IMG/VR virus record: IMGVR_UViG_2684622669_000011
Length of the DNA stretch: 10,552 nucleotides
Direction: 5' to 3' (one strand)
Source: a virus
Taxonomy: Duplodnaviria; Heunggongvirae; Uroviricota; Caudoviricetes
The translations under genes were made by a program, and so were the position numbers. The notes beneath the pieces are model-generated. The model ran no database searches. It was not told where the DNA came from and saw only the letters and a list, made by a program, of their open reading frames with translations. Positions 952 through 8,929 of this stretch are shown here, one piece after another (the stretch's first letter is position 1; every line of letters begins with the position of its first letter).

Positions 952-1315
952 AAATGCAGAAATGGCGCTTAGCTCCGCAATCGGAGAGCAGGTGGCAAAG
1001 ATTGCTGGTGCTGTGTGGATTCATAACCTTCATTCTACTGGTGAAGAGAAAATGGCAATTCAGACGCCAGAGGGACGCACCATTACTACATCTCTGAAGC
1101 CGTCAGATGTTTGTGATCTGATTTGCGCATTCATGTACCCAGCAATGAGGACTGTCCACGGCGATAAGTGGAAACTTGCGACAACCGCTGAATTTGATAT
1201 GTGGCTAAACAATGATGGCATGCTGACTGATTACGGAATAACCAAGTGGCAGATGCTGGTTAGCCATATCGCAAACGCTATAGACCACGTGGGGTACGGT
1301 GATGCGAAACATTGA
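944..1315 (+). CDS. Hypothetical small protein, 123 aa.
   Basis: ATG at 944 preceded by GGGAGG; stop TGA 1313-1315 overlaps the primase start, indicating translational coupling. No motif recognised. Confidence 0.65.
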   Translation: MRENAEMALSSAIGEQVAKIAGAVWIHNLHSTGEEKMAIQTPEGRTITTSLKPSDVCDLICAFMYPAMRTVHGDKWKLATTAEFDMWLNNDGMLTDYGITKWQMLVSHIANAIDHVGYGDAKH

Positions 1316-3569
1316 TCTTATCCGTCAGGTTATCAGTGCGTCTGAAAACAACTGGCCTCATGTGCTGGGCTGCCTGAACATAAATGTCCCTGACTCTCCG
1401 CGCCGTCATGCTCCCTGCCCTGCATGTGGGGGCAAAGATCGATTCCGGTTCGATGACAACGGGCGCGGTAGCTTCATCTGTAATCAGTGCGGCGCTGGTG
1501 ATGGGCTGGATTTAATTAAACGCGTAAATAACTGCGACACAACAGAGGCGGCGCTTCTTGCCGCTGATGTTCTGGGTATTGATTACCGGACAACGGAAAC
1601 ACCAGAAGCCACCAGCCAGAAACGGGAACAACTGGAATTTGATGACATGCGCAGAAAGGCTGTAAACGGCAAATCTGATTATCTGGTTGCGAAAGGGGTA
1701 GGTGATTTTACATTCCCCGTGTTGCCAGATGGATCTCTATTGCTGGCGCTGGTGGATAAATCCGGCGCAGTCACCGCAGCACAGACTATTACCTCACATG
1801 GTGAAAAAAGACTCCTGACAGGTTCGGCAAAGCGGGGGGCATATCACGCCATAAACGCACAGAAACGACCTCACAGCATCATAATTGCTGAGGGGGTGGC
1901 TACCGCCCTGTCGTGCCATTTAATTCGCCCTGACGCAATGACAGTGGCAGCAATCGACGCTGGCAACCTGTTGCCAGTAGCGGAAGTCATGCGCAGAACA
2001 TATCCACAGGCACAAATCATCATTGCCGCAGATAACGATCACCAGCAAGGAAACTCCGAAAGTGGAGGGATCAACACGGGGAAAGATGCCGCAGAGAGGG
2101 CCGCTATTTCCGTAGCTGGCTGGGTGTCTCTGCCACCGACTGACTATAAAGCCGACTGGAACGACTATCACCAACAACACGGGCTGGCGGCAGCCACAGC
2201 AGCATTTAAAGATTCGATGTACCAGCCACGGGGGAAAGGGGCGCAGGTGAAAAATCACAAACAGTCAGTCGGGGCGCTGAATGAGATCAGTTCTGGCGAG
2301 GTGTTAAGCGTTGATGAAATTGCTGTCCTCGAAGAAATCAACCGGACGTTTACGCATGTCACCATCGGCGGGAAACACAAGGTGGTGTCGCTAAAGCCTT
2401 CTCAAACCGGCGGTGTATCGCACGTTTTCGAGGATTTATCACAATTTCAGCATTATTTTCATCATAAACCGAGAGTCGCCAGAAAGCTGGCGGGATCGGC
2501 GTGGCTGTCATGGAGTGGGAAGAACTACAAGCCAGGAGGCGTAGGATTTTATCCAGTACCAGACAAATGCCCTGACGATGTTTTTAATCTGTATGAGGGG
2601 CTGGCACTGGAACCAATTGAAGGAGATTGCACGGTATACCTTAATCACCTGTTGCAGGTTGTCTGTGCCGGTAATGAGGAGGCATACCAATATCTTATCC
2701 AGTGGATGGCGCACATTATCCAAAAGCCTGATGAAAAACCGTCCGTGGCAATCGTGATGAAATCTGTCCCGGGCACAGGGAAAGGCACAACGGTTAAACC
2801 GCTGCTGCAAATACTGGGGCAGTACGCCGCCCACATTAACGGGGCGGGACATATTTCAGGGCGCTTCAATTCAATACTTGCTAACAAGCTACTGGTATTT
2901 GCTGACGAAGTGACGATCCACAAGCCGTCTGAAGCTGACAGACTTAAAGCGATTATTAGCGAACCGACGTTTAACCTTGAGCGCAAGGGAATTGATGCTG
3001 AACCAATGCCGAATTTTGCCCGGTTGATATTTGCCAGTAACAGCACACAGGTATTACAGGCAGGGATAAGAGAGCGTCGCTATCTCGTGCTTGAGCCATC
3101 TCCTGAAAAAGCACAGAGTCGGGAGTATTTTGATCGGCTGTACAGTTGGCTTAATGATGGCGGTGCCGCAAAGTTGCTTTGGCATCTTAAAGGGGTGGAT
3201 CTCTCAGGTTTTGACCCTCAACGAGCGCCACAGACCGATGCCTTACGTGAAGAAATCTTGCTGGGGCTGTCTGGCGTTGAATTGTTTCTTTATGGCGAGC
3301 TAATCAATGAACCTCCGTTTAATGGCGAAGTCCGTTTGTTTGCAAAGGATATGGTTAGTCGATTTGTAGCGTGGTCGCTTGAGCGTGGGGAAAAGCTTAA
3401 AGAGCCAGCAGCCAGATCACTACTGGGTAAATCACTTGCACAAATGGGGCTGGTGAAGCATGGAAGACCAGACCGAGGGAATGGCGTGTTCTACGAACTA
3501 CCAGAGGTCGGAGTTCTACAGGCTGCGTTTGCCCGTCTGATCGGTATGGGGGGTTATGATGTTTTTTAA
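1302..3569 (+). CDS. Primase-helicase of the phage/plasmid P4-alpha family (zinc-ribbon + Toprim primase + D5-like SF3 helicase), about 755 aa.
   Basis: Seen in the translation: zinc-ribbon CPACGG-KDRFRFDD-x9-CNQCG near the N-terminus; Toprim-like IIIAEGVATAL and IIIAADNDHQ acidic motifs; P-loop VMKSVPGTGKGT and Walker-B-like LLVFADEV. Start is either GTG 1299 (track) or ATG 1302; ATG 1302 is preferred because GGGG (1291-1294) sits 7 nt upstream. Followed immediately by iterons. Confidence 0.9.
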   Translation: MRNIDLIRQVISASENNWPHVLGCLNINVPDSPRRHAPCPACGGKDRFRFDDNGRGSFICNQCGAGDGLDLIKRVNNCDTTEAALLAADVLGIDYRTTETPEATSQKREQLEFDDMRRKAVNGKSDYLVAKGVGDFTFPVLPDGSLLLALVDKSGAVTAAQTITSHGEKRLLTGSAKRGAYHAINAQKRPHSIIIAEGVATALSCHLIRPDAMTVAAIDAGNLLPVAEVMRRTYPQAQIIIAADNDHQQGNSESGGINTGKDAAERAAISVAGWVSLPPTDYKADWNDYHQQHGLAAATAAFKDSMYQPRGKGAQVKNHKQSVGALNEISSGEVLSVDEIAVLEEINRTFTHVTIGGKHKVVSLKPSQTGGVSHVFEDLSQFQHYFHHKPRVARKLAGSAWLSWSGKNYKPGGVGFYPVPDKCPDDVFNLYEGLALEPIEGDCTVYLNHLLQVVCAGNEEAYQYLIQWMAHIIQKPDEKPSVAIVMKSVPGTGKGTTVKPLLQILGQYAAHINGAGHISGRFNSILANKLLVFADEVTIHKPSEADRLKAIISEPTFNLERKGIDAEPMPNFARLIFASNSTQVLQAGIRERRYLVLEPSPEKAQSREYFDRLYSWLNDGGAAKLLWHLKGVDLSGFDPQRAPQTDALREEILLGLSGVELFLYGELINEPPFNGEVRLFAKDMVSRFVAWSLERGEKLKEPAARSLLGKSLAQMGLVKHGRPDRGNGVFYELPEVGVLQAAFARLIGMGGYDVF

Positions 3570-3598
3570 TATAGTCTTTTTACAAGAAGATCGTTTTT

Positions 3599-3703
3599 AC
3601 CTGTACCACCTATACCACTTTGCTAATTCAGTATTAAAAACAGTGCGTTATAGTGGTACAGGTCAATATCTTACCTATACCAGACCTGTACCACCTATAC
3701 CAT
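3599..3703. repeat. Iteron-type replication origin: two near-identical 20-bp direct repeats flanking an AT-rich spacer that carries an inverted partial copy.
   Basis: ACCTGTACCACCTATACCAC at 3599-3618 and ACCTGTACCACCTATACCAT at 3684-3703 (19/20 identical); inverted GACCTGTACCAC on the minus strand at 3653-3664; partial ACCTATACCA at 3673-3682; AT-rich tract ttgctaattcagtattaaaaacag between them. Position directly 3' of the primase gene matches P4 ori/crr and PICI ori architecture. Confidence 0.6.
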
Positions 3704-3745
3704 TAACAAACGCATTTCTTCTGGCTGGCTGAGAGGAAACAACCA

Positions 3746-3976
3746 ATGATGAGCACACCATTTTACAAAGTGCGCCAGTTAGCTTCTTCCTCTGGCTGGC
3801 AGCTACGGTTTGAGGGGCGTTCAGACTGGCTACCCATTGCGGCATGGGCGAATGTTGAAATGTGTATTGACGGCGATACCGTTGAAATCATTATTCCCTG
3901 CGTGGCAAGTCGGGACGGCTGTATAGAGCCAACAGATATGGCAGCAGAAATCAGAGAGGTAAAACATGAACAATAA
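3746..3976 (+). CDS. Hypothetical small protein, 76 aa.
   Basis: ATG at 3746 preceded by GAGAGGA; stop TAA 3974-3976 overlaps the start of the next ORF (3966). Contains three Cys (C-x11-C-x6-C) but no recognisable Ogr/Delta-type zinc finger. Confidence 0.6.
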   Translation: MMSTPFYKVRQLASSSGWQLRFEGRSDWLPIAAWANVEMCIDGDTVEIIIPCVASRDGCIEPTDMAAEIREVKHEQ

Positions 3977-4703
3977 CTATTGCATACTGCAGGGAATGAC
4001 CAGAACGGAGCGCGAAGAATTAAAAAGTTTCGCTACACAGTGCGGGAATGCTGGCGACATCCAAAGTCTGGAACGCACTTTAATTATGATTGCGCACTGG
4101 ATGCGCCAGGGGCAAAGAGTTTCATTTACTGAATATGCCAGCCAGTGGACAGAGGCACAGCGCGAACGGAGCGACGGTAATCACTCAACACCCGAAATGG
4201 CGAAGCAATGGCCTTTCAGTGGTAAAAGCTGTATCAGTCCCGGTGGTTCAGATTATTACCCTGCTGGTGTGGGAGATGAGCCATGTTGTGACGAAACTGA
4301 AATCCGCCACGCAGTGACAGTAATTACCGCTGAATACCCACAATTTAACCTTGACGGACTGGCGCTCCACAACCGGAATGCGGACTGGGAAAACCCGCTT
4401 GATAACCCGTCATTTATCGTATCGGCGAAAAGCTGCCTGAGATGGATCAGAGACAACGGGATGAGTAATGCCCAGATTGAGAGCTTCCCGCAGGATAACC
4501 CCACATCTGACACGTTGAAGCATGAAGTGGAGCGATATAACCAGATAAACCACCAGCACAGTGATCACCCGCACTATATCCCCAACGGAGCATTTATTGC
4601 GGCGATGGTGGCAAGCGGCTACAAGGTTAAGCCAGCGGGAAGAATGAACGCATTTTTCAATATTTCAAAAAAGGGATTATGTGCTGCTATGGGTAAAAAT
4701 TAA
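3966..4703 (+). CDS. Hypothetical protein, 245 aa, Cys/His/Trp-containing, between the two iteron clusters.
   Basis: ATG at 3966 with an AGAGAGGT SD; translationally coupled to the 76-aa ORF; no ATPase or nuclease motif recognised; contains CCDETE and HQHSDHPHY stretches. Spurious internal ORFs on both strands (4090-4317 +, 4256-4513 -) ignored. Confidence 0.7.
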   Translation: MNNNYCILQGMTRTEREELKSFATQCGNAGDIQSLERTLIMIAHWMRQGQRVSFTEYASQWTEAQRERSDGNHSTPEMAKQWPFSGKSCISPGGSDYYPAGVGDEPCCDETEIRHAVTVITAEYPQFNLDGLALHNRNADWENPLDNPSFIVSAKSCLRWIRDNGMSNAQIESFPQDNPTSDTLKHEVERYNQINHQHSDHPHYIPNGAFIAAMVASGYKVKPAGRMNAFFNISKKGLCAAMGKN

Positions 4704-4709
4704 ATAAAT

Positions 4710-4812
4710 GGTACAGGTCTGTACAGGTGGGGAGAGGTCATTTTTACCCACCTGTACCACCTGCAGGCCGCGCCACACAAGGGTTTGTGACATGGTGGTA
4801 CAGGTGGTACAG
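4710..4812. repeat. Second iteron cluster (crr-like): the same CCTGTACCACC core in both orientations.
   Basis: GGTACAGGTCTGTACAGGTGG at 4710-4730 (inverted copies), CACCTGTACCACC at 4749-4761 (forward), GGTGGTACAGGTGGTACAG at 4794-4812 (inverted tandem). Lies about 1.1 kb from the first cluster, directly after the stop of the 245-aa gene. Confidence 0.6.
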
Positions 4813-5177
4813 CAAAAACAGCGATTTTCTTTATAAGGTATGTTTTGCTCATCTGGCAGACGGAGGTATTCGCTGCGGTTTGGCACATAGCCCAGAACAG
4901 CAAAGAGTTTTACGAGACTTTTGTAAAATCCAGTGTACAAGGGCGTGACGTTTTTGAAGGTGAGCACTACGAAATTTTCGTAGTTCAAAAAATAGCCTCT
5001 GAGATGTTGTTATGCCTGTTCAGCAAACCATCCGCATAGCTGATCGCGAATCAAATTACCAATGGAGCCAGAAGCAAGGGCAGAACTGGAAAGCGCCTGC
5101 CGTGAAGAGTAATGCGACTCCATAAATATAGTTTTTAGAGTCCATAAAAAAACTGTCAAAACCTGACATACAGAACG

Positions 5178-5210
5178 ATGCCACCAGCTACTGAACGGTG
5201 GCATTTTTTT
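5178..5210 (+). terminator. Rho-independent terminator on the + strand.
   Basis: Perfect 8-bp stem ATGCCACC (5178-5185) / GGTGGCAT (5197-5204) with an 11-nt loop, followed by a T7 run (5204-5210). On the minus strand no U-run follows the hairpin, so it is unidirectional. Confidence 0.6.
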
Positions 5211-5239
5211 GTGCTATTTGTTTCATATTTTGCAATCAC

Positions 5240-5280
5240 AATGATGAATGTTGCGTTTTATGAAACTATAATGACTGTTG
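5240..5280 (+). promoter_or_regulatory. Candidate sigma70-type promoter for the accessory operon: consensus -10 with a weak -35, possibly activator-dependent.
   Basis: Perfect TATAAT at 5267-5272, about 34 nt upstream of the ATG at 5306; the best -35 candidates (ATGAAT/GATGAA around 5243-5249) are poor. Direct repeats TGTTGCGTTTTAT (5249-5261) and TGTTGTTTTAT (5276-5286) flank the -10. No TGT-N12-ACA Ogr/Delta-type site found upstream. Confidence 0.3.
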
Positions 5281-5305
5281 TTTTATACAGTTATAAGGGG
5301 GCGTT

Positions 5306-5479
5306 ATGGCTATTTCAGTAAAGCCAGTATTGATAAGTGAGAAGCAAATGGAAGCGATAAAGAAAATTCAGGAGGAGCAGCGTAAAAAATCAGAGGTAGG
5401 AGTTGCGCCAACGATCCACGAAATTGCTCGGGGATTAATGGATAAGGCGCTGGCTTACACTTTAACTGGACGTGGGTAA
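5306..5479 (+). CDS. Small hypothetical protein, 57 aa, possibly a DNA-binding regulator; first gene of the accessory operon. Absent from the ORF track (below its length cutoff).
   Basis: ATG 5306 preceded by AGGGGG (5295-5300) at 5-nt spacing; stop TAA 5477-5479 lies 4 nt before the ATG of the next gene. Translation MAISVKPVLISEKQMEAIKKIQEEQRKKSEVGVAPTIHEIARGLMDKALAYTLTGRG has a short beta-like N-terminus followed by two predicted helices. Confidence 0.5.
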   Translation: MAISVKPVLISEKQMEAIKKIQEEQRKKSEVGVAPTIHEIARGLMDKALAYTLTGRG

Positions 5480-5483
5480 ATTT

Positions 5484-6827
5484 ATGGCTACGTGGCAACA
5501 GGGTATTAATTCTGGTGGTTTTCTGGCTGGCATCGGTACGCAAAATGAGAATGCGCCAAAGGCAAGCGACATTAACGCAACGCTTGGTCTGATCCGCGAA
5601 AACAATGAACTGGCTCGCTCAGGTGCAAATAACGTTGCTCTGACAGGTCTTCGTGGTCTGGCTGGAGTTGCTGACATTTATAAGCAGCAGCAACAGCAGG
5701 AACGTAAAGCGGCATTCCAGAAAGGTTATGCAGATGCTTATGCGTACGGTGACAGGGAGCAGATGCGTAATCTTATTACAGCATTCCCAGAAGAGTTTGA
5801 GGAAGTCCGTAAAGGGATGAGTTATGTCGATGATGCTCAAAGGGATGATTATGGCAATCTGGCGCTCAAAGCACAGGTAGCCTCATCGCTTGGTCAGGGC
5901 GCATTTGGCAGGTTCATGATGGATAATGAGCAGGAGATGCGTCGTTTAGGTATCCCTCCAGAAACTATTGCTGAAATGCAGGTTAATGACCCGCAGGGCT
6001 TCCAGCATTTCGCAGGTAATCTGGCGCTGTTTTCTCTCGGTCATGAGAAGTATTTCGATATCAAAGATCAAATGGAAGGTCGTCGACTTGAGCAAGGGCG
6101 ACTGGATGAAAGCATCCGTCAGGCTGACATGGAGAACGCGAGAGGATGGGCAAATATCCAGAACGCTCAACTAGACAGGGCTCAGCGAGCACAAATTCAC
6201 TCAGATGAGATGGGATTGAAGCTAATGGAGCTGGGGCAAAAAGGTAAGCCGTCAGCAGACTTAATTAAGGGATTAAATTCTGACATTACCAATTTTGGCA
6301 AAAATTATAACTCTGTCAGAGCGGCGGCAAACTCTCTGCAAGCCCTTAGCAAGGTAAATACTGGCGCTGCCCAACTTGGGATTATCTTCAACTACATGAA
6401 ATCTCTTGACCCGCAGTCAGTCGTTCGTGAAGGCGAACAGGTTCAGGTAATGCGGTCTGATGGCATATGGGGACAAATCAAAGGATACATAGACCAGCTT
6501 AATGCTGGAAACGGCCTGTCGCAGGAGGCAAAGGATAACATTGTTAACGCCGCAAAAATCAACGCCAATGCTATGGGGCAGCAGTTTAACCAGCAGGTTG
6601 ACGAGTATCTCGATACATATGGAGAAACTATTCCTCAGGGGCTAAGAAAAAGCCTTGAAAGAAGGAAAGCGAAGCTATTTGACGATGTTTCCGGGCAGCC
6701 TACATCACAGGCTGGCACTGGACAGGCAAAAGCGGCAACCGGAGGAATATCAGAAGGCGCAACGGCAACCAACCCTAAAACTGGTCAGAAAATCATTTAC
6801 AGGAACGGAAAATGGCAGCAAATGTAA
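5484..6827 (+). CDS. Hypothetical low-complexity protein, about 447 aa, Gln/Asn/Ala/Gly-rich and predicted largely helical; the track lists it as 451 aa from GTG 5472.
   Basis: Long ORF with a biased but coding-like composition; ATG 5484 is favoured over GTG 5472 because it sits 4 nt after the upstream stop. Contains a QQQQQ run (CAG/CAA tract 5685-5699); no P-loop or catalytic motif recognised; 3' end overlaps the next gene by 16 nt. Confidence 0.8.
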   Translation: MATWQQGINSGGFLAGIGTQNENAPKASDINATLGLIRENNELARSGANNVALTGLRGLAGVADIYKQQQQQERKAAFQKGYADAYAYGDREQMRNLITAFPEEFEEVRKGMSYVDDAQRDDYGNLALKAQVASSLGQGAFGRFMMDNEQEMRRLGIPPETIAEMQVNDPQGFQHFAGNLALFSLGHEKYFDIKDQMEGRRLEQGRLDESIRQADMENARGWANIQNAQLDRAQRAQIHSDEMGLKLMELGQKGKPSADLIKGLNSDITNFGKNYNSVRAAANSLQALSKVNTGAAQLGIIFNYMKSLDPQSVVREGEQVQVMRSDGIWGQIKGYIDQLNAGNGLSQEAKDNIVNAAKINANAMGQQFNQQVDEYLDTYGETIPQGLRKSLERRKAKLFDDVSGQPTSQAGTGQAKAATGGISEGATATNPKTGQKIIYRNGKWQQM

Positions 6828-8929
6828 TCTTACCGGAAGGTTTTGTGCTCGATGAACAACCTGATAACTCACAGTTTCCTGATAGTTCACAGCTTCCTGA
6901 TGGTTTTGTGCTTGATGCCCAACCAGAACAGCAGCAATCACCTTTGGTTTCACCAGAGGAAAATTCCAGACAGGAAAATGTTGTTAATAATGCTAACGGT
7001 TTCGACCGTTTTATGTATGGCGTTCTCAGTGGATTGATGGATGTTGGTAAAGGTGTTGGCCTGTTTCAGGATATGACACCAGAAGAGCAAGCAGCAATTC
7101 AGTCTCTACAGCAGAAGTTAGCGGCAAAACCATCAACCGCACAAGATGTTGGTGAGTTCGTTGGACAAGCAGCGCCATTTGTTAGTGGTGGTGGGATTAT
7201 TTCTCAGGTTCCCAAAGGGGCGGCAAGACTGGCTGCCGCCGCAGGGCTTGGTGCTGGAGAAGGGGCTATTGTAGCCAATGGAACAAATAGCGATGTTGCT
7301 TCCGGCGCTGCTATTGGCGCTGTGGCTGGCCCTGTAGCCGAACTTGCTGGCCCTGCAATTAATAAAATAGCTGGGAAATTAACCAAGAAGAATGTTTCTT
7401 CGATTCCAGATATTGAGGGGATTACTCCTGCCGAAGAGAAAATTCGTAAGTTATCTGCACAAGGCAACCCAAATCTTGCCTCTTCGCTTGAAGGGCTAGA
7501 TCTAAAACCTCAGAAAGAAATTGTTGAGGCTGCAAATAGGCTTCATGTTGATTCAGTTCTTCCTTCTCATTTATCAGGAAATGAGCAATACCAAGCTGTA
7601 GAGCAAGCCCTAAAGTCACGGACAGGATCAGCGTTAAAAGCTCAAGAAGATAAAGCAATAAGCGAATTAGCCTCTAGTGCTGGCAAGATAATCGATGATG
7701 TTGCTGGTGCGCCAGATGCGTTAGCTATGAGCGAAAAATATATTTATCAGATAAATAGTAGAATGGAAGCACTAAAAAACCGTAGTGATCAGTTATATAA
7801 ACGTGTTGATTCCGCTCTATCACCAAGAACAAAAGTCGAAGCAAATAACACAAGCACTATGCTGGAAAAAATCGCTGATGATTTAGGAGGGTGGGATAAT
7901 CTTGACCCAATAGAAAAGCGAGTTTTTACAGCAATAAACCCCGGCCCAGATAGCATCCTAACGTATGCAAATTTAAACAGGCAAAGGCGTTTAGTTGGTG
8001 ATGCCCTAAATAAAAAGCAGGGGCCATACAAAGATGCTGATAAAGAAGCGCTATCAAGACTATATGGAGCTTTAGCTGAAGACCAAAAATCTGTCTTATC
8101 CAATACTGGATACTTGCGAGATTTCGAAGTCGCACAACGCCTTGTAGCTATGAGAAAAAACTTAGAAAGGCAAATGGTAAATCTTCGCGGGAAAACACTT
8201 AATGGGGATATAGCGTATAAAGTAACGAATTCTCTTCAATCTATGGCAAAAGGTGATGCGAGAGGGTTTCGTGAGATTATGCAAAATACTCCATCAAGAA
8301 CATTGCGAAGGGAGCTAGTAGGAACAGCATTAAGAGATATGCTTTCCTCTGGGAAGCGTGGGGCCGACTTTAATCCATCTGGCTTTGCAGATTGGTGGCA
8401 AAACTTGCAACACAGTGGACAGCTAAAGACTTTGGCTGAACATTTGCCAAAAGAAACAATGAGCGGACTATATGATGTATACAAAGTTGCCAGAGCAATA
8501 AAAAATGCTAAAGCGCATGAAATATCTACTGGTAAGCTGAATGAGTTTGTAAACAGATTTAATCGGGTAACAGCTCCATACGAACTAGCAGCAAAACACA
8601 TTCAAAAAATAGGCACGATGGTAGGCGCTCATTTTGGATCGCTTGGAGCCATTGCTGGGGCTGATATTGGAGCAAGATTGGCGAGTAAAGCTCGATTAGC
8701 TGGTGGAGCAGGGGCGGCTGATGCTGCGGATAAATTAATTGCCTCGCCAGCCTTCCAGAGCGCAGTAAAAAATCTACACGGAAAAGCGCCTGGGCACATT
8801 GTTGATTCACGTATCAGGCGCTCCCCTCAATGGAAGAGTTTTTTTAACTCTCTTCCTGAACAGGAAAAACGGACCATCGCCAGACTGGGCATCATTACTT
8901 GGCTATCTAATGATCCAGATAATGACTAG
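6812..8929 (+). CDS. Hypothetical large protein, 705 aa, with an N-terminal tandem repeat (LPEGFVLDEQ / PDNSQF / PDSSQL / PDGFVLDAQ), two Gly/Ala-rich glycine-zipper-like segments and an AT-rich central region.
   Basis: ATG 6812 with an AGGA SD (6801-6804); overlaps the stop of the upstream gene, indicating coupling. No Walker A, HExxH or other catalytic signature seen. Gly/Ala-rich stretches at residues about 118-189 (nt 7163-7378) and 599-642 (nt 8606-8737). Stop TAG 8927-8929. Confidence 0.85.
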   Translation: MAANVILPEGFVLDEQPDNSQFPDSSQLPDGFVLDAQPEQQQSPLVSPEENSRQENVVNNANGFDRFMYGVLSGLMDVGKGVGLFQDMTPEEQAAIQSLQQKLAAKPSTAQDVGEFVGQAAPFVSGGGIISQVPKGAARLAAAAGLGAGEGAIVANGTNSDVASGAAIGAVAGPVAELAGPAINKIAGKLTKKNVSSIPDIEGITPAEEKIRKLSAQGNPNLASSLEGLDLKPQKEIVEAANRLHVDSVLPSHLSGNEQYQAVEQALKSRTGSALKAQEDKAISELASSAGKIIDDVAGAPDALAMSEKYIYQINSRMEALKNRSDQLYKRVDSALSPRTKVEANNTSTMLEKIADDLGGWDNLDPIEKRVFTAINPGPDSILTYANLNRQRRLVGDALNKKQGPYKDADKEALSRLYGALAEDQKSVLSNTGYLRDFEVAQRLVAMRKNLERQMVNLRGKTLNGDIAYKVTNSLQSMAKGDARGFREIMQNTPSRTLRRELVGTALRDMLSSGKRGADFNPSGFADWWQNLQHSGQLKTLAEHLPKETMSGLYDVYKVARAIKNAKAHEISTGKLNEFVNRFNRVTAPYELAAKHIQKIGTMVGAHFGSLGAIAGADIGARLASKARLAGGAGAADAADKLIASPAFQSAVKNLHGKAPGHIVDSRIRRSPQWKSFFNSLPEQEKRTIARLGIITWLSNDPDND
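6860..6895 (+). repeat. In-frame 18-bp tandem repeat (two units plus a partial third) inside the 5' end of the 705-aa gene.
   Basis: CCTGATAACTCACAGTTT (6860-6877) followed by CCTGATAGTTCACAGCTT (6878-6895) and CCTGATGG; bracketed by the 16-bp direct repeat GGTTTTGTGCT(C/T)GATG at 6837-6852 and 6901-6916. Confidence 0.7.

Follow-up and report, generated by a model that had tools for sequence, protein, structure and literature searches.

The 10,552-bp stretch of viral DNA analyzed here (IMG/VR record IMGVR_UViG_2684622669_000011, hereafter the window) belongs to a phage-inducible chromosomal island (PICI) of the Gram-negative kind from Escherichia coli, and it contains two clusters of a short repeat, or iteron, downstream of its initiator gene. 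The second cluster (C2), with a probability of roughly 0.7, is the far half of the island's replication origin and would be bound by the initiator. Comparison with related islands indicates that the window's origin is a two-part iteron array, which usually forms one block of ~230–300 bp directly past the initiator gene, and which is parted here by genes for proteins of 76 and 245 amino acids. As an origin it is of a known kind, with a new layout but no new mechanism. PICI origins have been described as iteron sets around an AT-rich region directly 3′ of pri-rep (PMC6092414, PMC10111431), with iterons on both sides of that region (PMC6092414, PMC9371898).

The repeat core GGTACAGG occurs in six exact copies in the window compared to 0.13 expected, and none of 200 dinucleotide-preserving shuffles reached six (0/200). 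Since all six copies fall into two clusters, with three at 3600-3692 (cluster 1, C1) and three at 4710-4804 (C2), chance is excluded. The 7-mer GGTACAG has seven copies in the window, every one of them within C1 or C2. The elements of the region, with > denoting a copy on the plus strand, < an inverted copy, and numbers the start-to-start distances in bp, are as follows.

1299-3569, plus strand: primase-helicase initiator gene, 756 amino acids, with a zinc ribbon, a Toprim primase, a DUF5906 SF3-type helicase (Pfam), and a C-terminal domain of ~120-150 amino acids
3600-3702, both strands: C1, putative near half of the origin, with the pattern << AT-rich > <<<, beginning 31 bp past the initiator stop codon
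3600-3607 (minus), 3609-3616 (minus, GGTATAGG variant), 3655-3662 (plus), 3674-3681 (minus, variant), 3685-3692 (minus), and 3694-3701 (minus, variant): iterons of C1
3617-3654: AT-rich spacer between the inverted iterons of C1, the likely DNA-melting site
3721-3731, plus strand: CTGGCTGGCTG motif, where the array is split
3746-3976, plus strand: open reading frame (ORF) of 76 amino acids in the split origin, with a 43-bp leader after C1
3966-4703, plus strand: ORF of 245 amino acids in the split origin, encoding a two-domain protein
4710-4813, both strands: C2, putative far half of the origin, with the spacing > 10 > 31 < 46 > 9 >, beginning 7 bp past the stop codon of the 245-amino-acid ORF
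4710-4717, plus strand: C2 iteron, GGTACAGG
4720-4727, plus strand: C2 iteron, TGTACAGG, which reads GGTACAGG in the E. coli copies L037 and L038
4751-4758, minus strand: C2 iteron, GGTACAGG
4767-4775, plus strand: GCCGCGCCA motif, within the GC-rich C2 spacer that separates the inverted copy from the tandem pair
4797-4804, plus strand: C2 iteron, GGTACAGG
4806-4813, plus strand: C2 iteron, GGTACAGC
3595-3618 (left arm) and 4795-4818 (right arm): outer inverted repeat of C1 and C2, 24 nt, 88% complementary, in which the outermost tandem iteron pairs face each other

A first-pass annotation of this DNA had reported at least five copies of the core in both orientations at 4705-4815. Five are found at 4710-4813, and they carry the same iteron, GGTACAGG, as the cluster beside the primase gene, as it had also claimed. 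The dyads that it described in C2 are real, with one pair of arms at 4748-4761 and 4794-4807 (14 nt, 100% complementary) and another at 4709-4723 and 4745-4759 (15 nt, 87% complementary). Its placement of CACCTGTACCACC at 4749-4761 stands, while TGTACAGGTGG lies at 4720-4730 and not at 4721-4731, a difference of one base. The separation of ~1.1 kb that it gave agrees with the centre-to-centre distance between the clusters, and these bracket the two ORFs as proposed. C1 lies directly 3′ of the initiator gene (31 bp), C2 begins 1.14 kb past the initiator stop codon, and the gap between the two is 1007 bp. GC content is 0.20-0.40 across 3560-3700 (C1) and 0.45-0.63 in the core of C2, the spacer of which contains an A/T stretch of only 10 bp. 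C1 is kept in L003, L004, L026, L037, and L038.

The assignment of both clusters to one origin comes from islands that use other iterons. In ~12 such islands the iterons form one contiguous array of ~270-300 bp, in which '< 9 < 9 < 52 > 11 > 21 >' in the near half is continued by '43 > 21 > 23 < 43 > 9 > 9 >' in the far half. The array of the island EcCICFT073 (L049, located in CFT073) reads '< 9 < 48 > 20 < 12 < 9 <', continued by '32 > 11 > 23 < 45 > 9 >'. The window has '<< AT-rich > <<<' in C1, then 1007 bp, and then '> 10 > 31 < 46 > 9 >' in C2, and after removal of this 1-kb stretch all eleven copies agree with EcCICFT073 in order, orientation, and spacing. The contiguous arrays likewise open with <<(<) and close with >>(>), and in them the far unit is always paired with an AT-rich near half. 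The first-pass annotation had regarded C2 as a separate locus of the P4 crr type; instead, it appears to be the far half of one bipartite array, which is contiguous in EcCICFT073 and in the ~12 other islands.

EcCICFT073 is the closest point of reference, and its pri-rep-ori segment replicates a plasmid (Fillol-Salom et al. 2018, ISME J, PMC6092414). Its origin is like that of the window in island type, gene order, the position of the array past the initiator gene, and the GCCGCGCCA motif in the spacer, and its iteron GGTAGACAG is related in sequence to the GGTACAGG of the window. However, the array of EcCICFT073 is one contiguous block of ~230 bp, while the halves in the window are 1007 bp and two genes apart. 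The initiators also differ. That of EcCICFT073 is a P4-alpha-type helicase and origin-binding protein without Toprim, which is 41% identical to residues 324-756 of P4 alpha (helicase and origin-binding domain), while the window encodes a Toprim primase with a DUF5906 helicase, and a BLASTP comparison of the two initiators found no similarity.

The spacer motif GCCGCGCCA is invariant in the window, L003, L037, and EcCICFT073 (L049, ~4189-4197), and its reverse complement occurs at the equivalent place in L005 (9017), L007 (9000), L008 (9054), L010 (8997), and L016 (4053). It was not found in the arrays of Xenorhabdus, L009, L021, L022, and L023. As C2 has the layout of a far half, C1 has that of a near half, and GCCGCGCCA is common to both kinds of array, the two clusters are assigned to the same origin, split by two genes. 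GC-rich motifs of the GCCGCGCCA type are conserved in islands with different iterons and unrelated initiators, in a spacer of ~45 bp, and may offer a site to a host or helper factor. The second motif, CTGGCTGGCTG, has four matches in the window at ≤1 mismatch compared to 0.22 expected (3721-3731, 3792-3802, 4135-4145 on the minus strand, and 5523-5533). A CTGGC(T/A)GGCAG motif is found between the near and far halves of contiguous arrays with other iteron types (L005, L007, L009), terminates the array in L050, and also occurs in L003, L041, and L042. In arrays that contain nested genes, it precedes the start codon of the first of them by 12-20 bp.

The iteron type of an island follows the C-terminal half of its initiator. 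A scan of one genome per species gave 23 loci encoding relatives, and GGTACAGG clusters were found past the gene only in the two loci that share the C-terminal half of the initiator (Buttiauxella L003 and Pantoea L004). The 20 loci that have the primase domain alone in common contain no GGTACAGG clusters; these other loci have an iteron of their own directly past the initiator stop codon, which is TGAACCAAC, GAGACAACA, TAACCCGT, TGTGACCG, or GGTAGGGAT. Among 22 initiators compared, iteron type tracks the clade of the C-terminal 120 amino acids and is independent of the N-terminal 300. For example, the initiators of the window and L050 are 81% identical at the N-terminus and 22% at the C-terminus, and the L050 iteron is TGAACCAAC. 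Those of Xenorhabdus L040 and L041 have a C-terminal identity of 95% and an N-terminal identity of 43%, with the GGTACAG iteron in both. The five GGTACAG initiators have C-terminal identities of 48-95%. C1 and C2 are thus inherited together with the C-terminal half of the initiator, and this covariation suggests recognition of the iterons in C1 and C2 by the C-terminal domain. The domain of ~120-150 amino acids is presumed to be the part that binds them.

These initiators are mosaics, in which the N-terminal primase domain and the C-terminal helicase/DNA-binding half have been swapped independently (window compared to L050, L040-L042, L002, and L049). The primase domain of the window's initiator is 34% identical to residues 5-314 of P4 alpha (E = 3e-41), and the remainder is not detectably related to alpha; P4 alpha itself pairs a window-like primase domain with an EcCICFT073-like helicase/origin-binding half. 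Protein searches with the C-terminal 157 amino acids returned fragments only, and the C-terminal half, scanned against metagenomes and IMG/VR, matched nothing but near-identical copies from E. coli. A scan of IMG/VR for the pattern GGTACAGNTGGNACAG gave 120 loci, which are chance matches or repetitive coding runs, and none of them (0) encodes a relative.

C2 is present in all intact islands of the GGTACAG type, which comprise those of 130 E. coli genomes and those of Buttiauxella L003, Raoultella L044, and Xenorhabdus L040 and L041. Further islands were reached through homologs of the 245-amino-acid protein. The position of C2 relative to the bracketed genes varies among islands.

Raoultella L044 and Buttiauxella L003, GGTACAG iterons: initiator, C1, 76-amino-acid gene, 245-amino-acid gene, C2, which is the order of the window
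Xenorhabdus L040 and L041, GGTACAG iterons: C2 between a 73-amino-acid gene and the 245-amino-acid homolog, 0.3 kb from C1, with the spacing > 41-42 < 44-45 > 9 >
L042, DUF927-type initiator, ACCGACAA iterons: array split too, by the 245-amino-acid homolog alone
Islands with AAA_25 or other DUF927 initiators, various iterons: entire array upstream of the 245-amino-acid homolog

In E. coli islands with different cargo, homology to the window stops 46-95 bp past C2. The replication module therefore ends with C2. In the decayed relatives L004 and L026, C2 has been lost together with the genes. A coding explanation of C2 was rejected, as the minus-strand or overlapping ORFs at 4677-4988, 4700-4903, and 4727-4948 are unannotated in RefSeq copies and the downstream region is not conserved in Buttiauxella.

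Two arrays past the 245-amino-acid homolog deserve separate mention. In L041 (Xenorhabdus innexi), foreign iterons of the ACCGACAA type, as in L042, occur at 5795-5960 past this gene, while the initiator and both of the island's own clusters are of the GGTACAG type. These foreign iterons are a recombination scar, and the 245-amino-acid gene moves with flanking origin DNA. In L042, a second cluster at 5798-5965 past the 245-amino-acid homolog has the layout '< 76 < 11 < 55 > 8 > 9 >', with inverted triple iterons around an AT-rich spacer. It looks like a complete second origin, unlike C2 of the window.

In the mechanism proposed here, the C-terminal domain of the primase-helicase would bind the GGTACAG iterons in both C1 and C2. 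Melting of the DNA and self-loading of the helicase would occur in the AT-rich C1 spacer, in line with the model for PICI Rep proteins (PMC9371898); melting is expected at C1 because C1 is AT-rich and the C2 core is not. C2 would serve in cis as an auxiliary site for loading or assembly of the initiator and would reach C1 by looping of the intervening 1 kb, which resembles the presumed cooperation of P4 crr with P4 ori. The far module would tolerate distance, with 0 kb in EcCICFT073, 0.3 kb in Xenorhabdus, and 1.0 kb in the window. Such a positive, looping action of C2 on C1 is a tentative proposal, to which somewhat less than even odds are given. C2 is probably stimulatory or modulatory and not indispensable.

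Conservation speaks for C2 as an origin half, with cores identical at 33/35 positions (94%) in E. coli and Buttiauxella compared to 41/76 (54%) outside the cores (Fisher p = 9e-6), but this test uses an alignment anchored by the cores themselves. Several further points weigh against this reading. The intact independent lineages with GGTACAG iterons are five only, and 2 or 3 of the 5 copies in C2 of Raoultella L044 are degenerate. Covariation is the one line of evidence that points to a DNA-binding role of the initiator C-terminal domain. A profile of its 157 amino acids (hidden Markov model, hhalign) matches neither 1KA8 nor the C-terminus of P4 alpha, and the AlphaFold model of the domain, with a predicted local distance difference test (pLDDT) score of 49, is too poor for a winged-helix comparison with P4 1KA8. 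The proposals on binding by the initiator, on looping, and on whether replication is raised or lowered are drawn from comparison between islands. Finally, the far half is not always present. Among islands of the TGAACCAAC type with intact initiators, L005, L008, L015, L021, and L023 have the full array, but L006, L018, L020, and L050 (E. coli 98195) have the near half only, and the downstream cargo of L050 is the same as that of the window. The far half is thus facultative in at least one lineage, which argues against a strict crr-like requirement in cis and for an auxiliary or modulatory role. The earlier suggestion that, as in P4, both clusters are required in cis is therefore doubtful.

A dispensable far half would also be expected of a negative copy-control locus, in which C2 titrates the initiator or handcuffs C1 on the same or a sister molecule. 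Such loci are known from plasmids: P1 incA and F incC are second clusters of the origin's iterons that lie outside the minimal origin, bracket the initiator gene, and are proven negative regulators. C2 is similar in being an extra cluster outside the minimal origin, in bracketing genes, and in being probably dispensable. It lacks an AT-rich melting region, and its outermost tandem pair is turned toward that of C1 in a geometry that permits pairing. However, the control iterons of P1 and F flank the rep gene itself, while C1 and C2 flank two other genes. In addition, PICI induction leads to a burst of replication and then to packaging (PMC6092414), which leaves no obvious use for tight copy control. 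Negative control is for these reasons considered unlikely. Handcuffing and regulation of the bracketed genes, both of which the first-pass annotation had raised, are conjectural. An action mainly on transcription, with bound initiator at C2 (and also at C1) serving as an operator or roadblock that regulates read-through into the two bracketed genes or the downstream cargo, is less likely again. It would account for the tight bracketing, with a 43-bp leader after C1 and with C2 only 7 bp past a stop codon, and for the position of C2 at the border of the conserved replication module and the variable cargo, and Gram-negative PICI genes are transcribed in one direction (PMC6092414). Yet a promoter and terminator scan of 3500-5600 found one promoter-like site, which is within the 76-amino-acid gene, and no promoter-like or terminator-like site in C2. 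C2 was also considered as an intrinsic terminator and rejected, with an RNA fold z of -2.3 and the U-tract missing. Moreover, the same far-half layout is found in contiguous arrays without genes to bracket, so bracketing is not its primary purpose.

The remaining explanations have little in their favor. It is very improbable that C2 is a relic without function, left by a duplication or by recombination between origins. Such relics do exist, as the foreign ACCGACAA-type iterons of X. innexi L041 indicate, modules have clearly been shuffled, and the Raoultella C2 is partly degenerate. But cores and spacing are kept across Escherichia, Buttiauxella, and Xenorhabdus while the spacers diverge, and the layout is identical to the EcCICFT073 far half, inside the region 3′ of pri-rep that was tested as ori by Fillol-Salom et al. 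(PMC6092414). Least probable of all is an independent second origin that fires alone. The second cluster of L042 resembles a complete origin, and P4 ori itself has the far-half layout, but the C2 spacer is GC-rich (0.45-0.63) with its single short A/T stretch, and in contiguous arrays the far unit is always accompanied by an AT-rich near half. The preferred reading therefore remains that of an initiator-binding far half.

The comparison with P4 explains why C2 was initially called crr-like. In P4, the sites required for replication are ori and crr, of which crr consists of two 120-bp direct repeats with five type I iterons each (GenBank annotation); statements on crr function here rest on that annotation and on general knowledge. 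Each crr repeat, read in the sense of alpha, has the layout '> 14 < 18 < 43 > 9 >', and ori has '< 10 < 43 > 22 < 11 < 10 <'. Both contain an inverted copy followed after 43 bp by a tandem pair 9-10 bp apart, and C2 has the same arrangement at 46 and 9 bp. P4 ori, P4 crr, PICI far halves, and C2 thus share one grammar: an inverted copy, 43-46 bp, and a tandem pair spaced at 9-10 bp. P4 also resembles the window in having two separated clusters of one iteron on one replicon (~1.0-1.1 kb apart in the window), and the P4 iteron GGTGAACAG resembles both GGTAGACAG of EcCICFT073 and GGTACAGG of the window. The label thus has a real basis, because layout and ancestry are common with P4.

The label is right only in part, since C2 is a single five-iteron unit with a different topology. 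A repeat search found no long direct repeat in 4700-4900. P4 crr lies directly past the alpha gene, with ori 4.5 kb off on the other side of the operon, whereas both clusters of the window are downstream of the initiator gene and flank two small genes. P4 spacers are AT-rich, while that of C2 is GC-rich. The helicase/DNA-binding half of P4 alpha is not detectably related to that of the window's initiator, and the requirement in cis is annotated for P4 crr but doubtful for C2. The origins of Staphylococcus aureus pathogenicity islands (SaPIs), which are Gram-positive PICIs, are similar to that of the window in that they lie directly 3′ of rep and have opposed iterons on either side of an AT-rich stretch. 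The SaPI initiator, a self-loading helicase, recognizes iterons via a C-terminal winged-helix domain (PMC9371898), but its family is unrelated in sequence to the window's initiator. SaPI origins have been described as single compact arrays, and neither PMC9371898 nor PMC6092414 describes a far module set apart from the origin or genes nested within it.

Major vehicles of gene transfer and of anti-phage defence in enterobacteria include the PICIs and P4-like satellites, the origins of which have been dissected in very few cases. The far iteron unit of these islands seems to be a module with the grammar of P4 ori and crr that can be separated, tolerates distance, and is dispensable in some cases. 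It offers a test of how self-loading SF3-type initiators assemble, of how crr-like sites function, and of how replication specificity is exchanged among satellites as a cassette of C-terminal domain and iterons. It also draws attention to a conserved gene that these origins contain or adjoin. In annotation, where a satellite origin has a second iteron cluster 1 kb away, the cluster should be considered part of that origin and not a separate element. A broader view is speculative and has a rather low chance of holding. In this view, the PICI origin would be a two-module device with a far module acting at a distance, the nested genes, above all that for the 245-amino-acid protein, would be coupled to initiator occupancy in expression or dosage, and this protein could act as a new factor in replication or helper interference. 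With the '< 43-46 > 9 >' grammar in common and with related iterons, P4 ori and crr and PICI origins would then form one family that persists across swaps of the helicase/DNA-binding half of the initiator. If a two-module device is indeed present, the natural variants at 0, 0.3, and 1.0 kb are a built-in looping experiment.

The two genes that part the origin have different distributions. The 76-amino-acid ORF is found only in islands with GGTACAG iterons (the window type, L003, L004, and a fragment in L026), and has no Pfam, PHROG, or NCBIfam match. A called gene of 73-76 amino acids occupies the equivalent position in L040, L041, and L044, which is a match by position only. The 245-amino-acid protein is rare, with 64 representatives among 1.8 billion, and its gene is typically the first after the PICI origin, across three unrelated initiator families. 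Its predicted structure has a pLDDT of 94. The fold has no significant match in PDB or BFVD, with weak winged-helix-like matches for the C-terminal part only.

The window DNA was found in 130 of 5,426 complete E. coli genomes, and its location was chromosomal every time. In strain ACN001 (L001), the element encodes an integrase, a small helix-turn-helix regulator, AntA, Ash, the primase-helicase, the two small ORFs, P22-type ejection proteins, an Abi gene product, and PerC; it lies between yicC and dinD with all genes rightward. The hallmarks of Gram-negative PICIs are an integrase, an AlpA-type regulator, pri/rep, and accessory genes such as PerC, with one direction of transcription (PMC6092414), and the host element has the integrase, regulator, and pri/rep in one direction and accessory genes such as PerC. 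A scan of the whole window against Rfam (E ≤ 1) found no relevant RNA family, and a search for lambda-type cosN sites gave chance-level matches only, so a packaging site is unsupported. Positions 1-1300 of the window differ from ACN001: a protein of 182 amino acids is only 84% identical, and window 1218, which corresponds to the RefSeq start of the ACN001 initiator, is not open here. The window therefore comes from a different mosaic variant of the island.

At 5472-8929 the cargo includes genes of the P22 type for DNA ejection or an injectosome (Pfam Inj_translocase; PHROG 'DNA transfer protein'). This agrees with the reported capture of helper late genes by PICIs, yet is unusual for a satellite. 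Upstream of the cargo, ~400 bp at 4907-5305 have no annotated feature and no Rfam match, and are 90-100% identical in ~455 complete E. coli genomes, including islands with another replication module (L050). This block adjoins, on the upstream side, a widely conserved ORF of 57 amino acids at 5306-5479. Decayed copies of the island also occur. Several of them, L004 and L026 among them, have been truncated by insertion sequence elements or by deletions inside the 76- or 245-amino-acid genes. In L036 (E. coli 99-3165, 2291-3070), the initiator is reduced to a C-terminal fragment of 259 amino acids, and both iteron clusters are intact.

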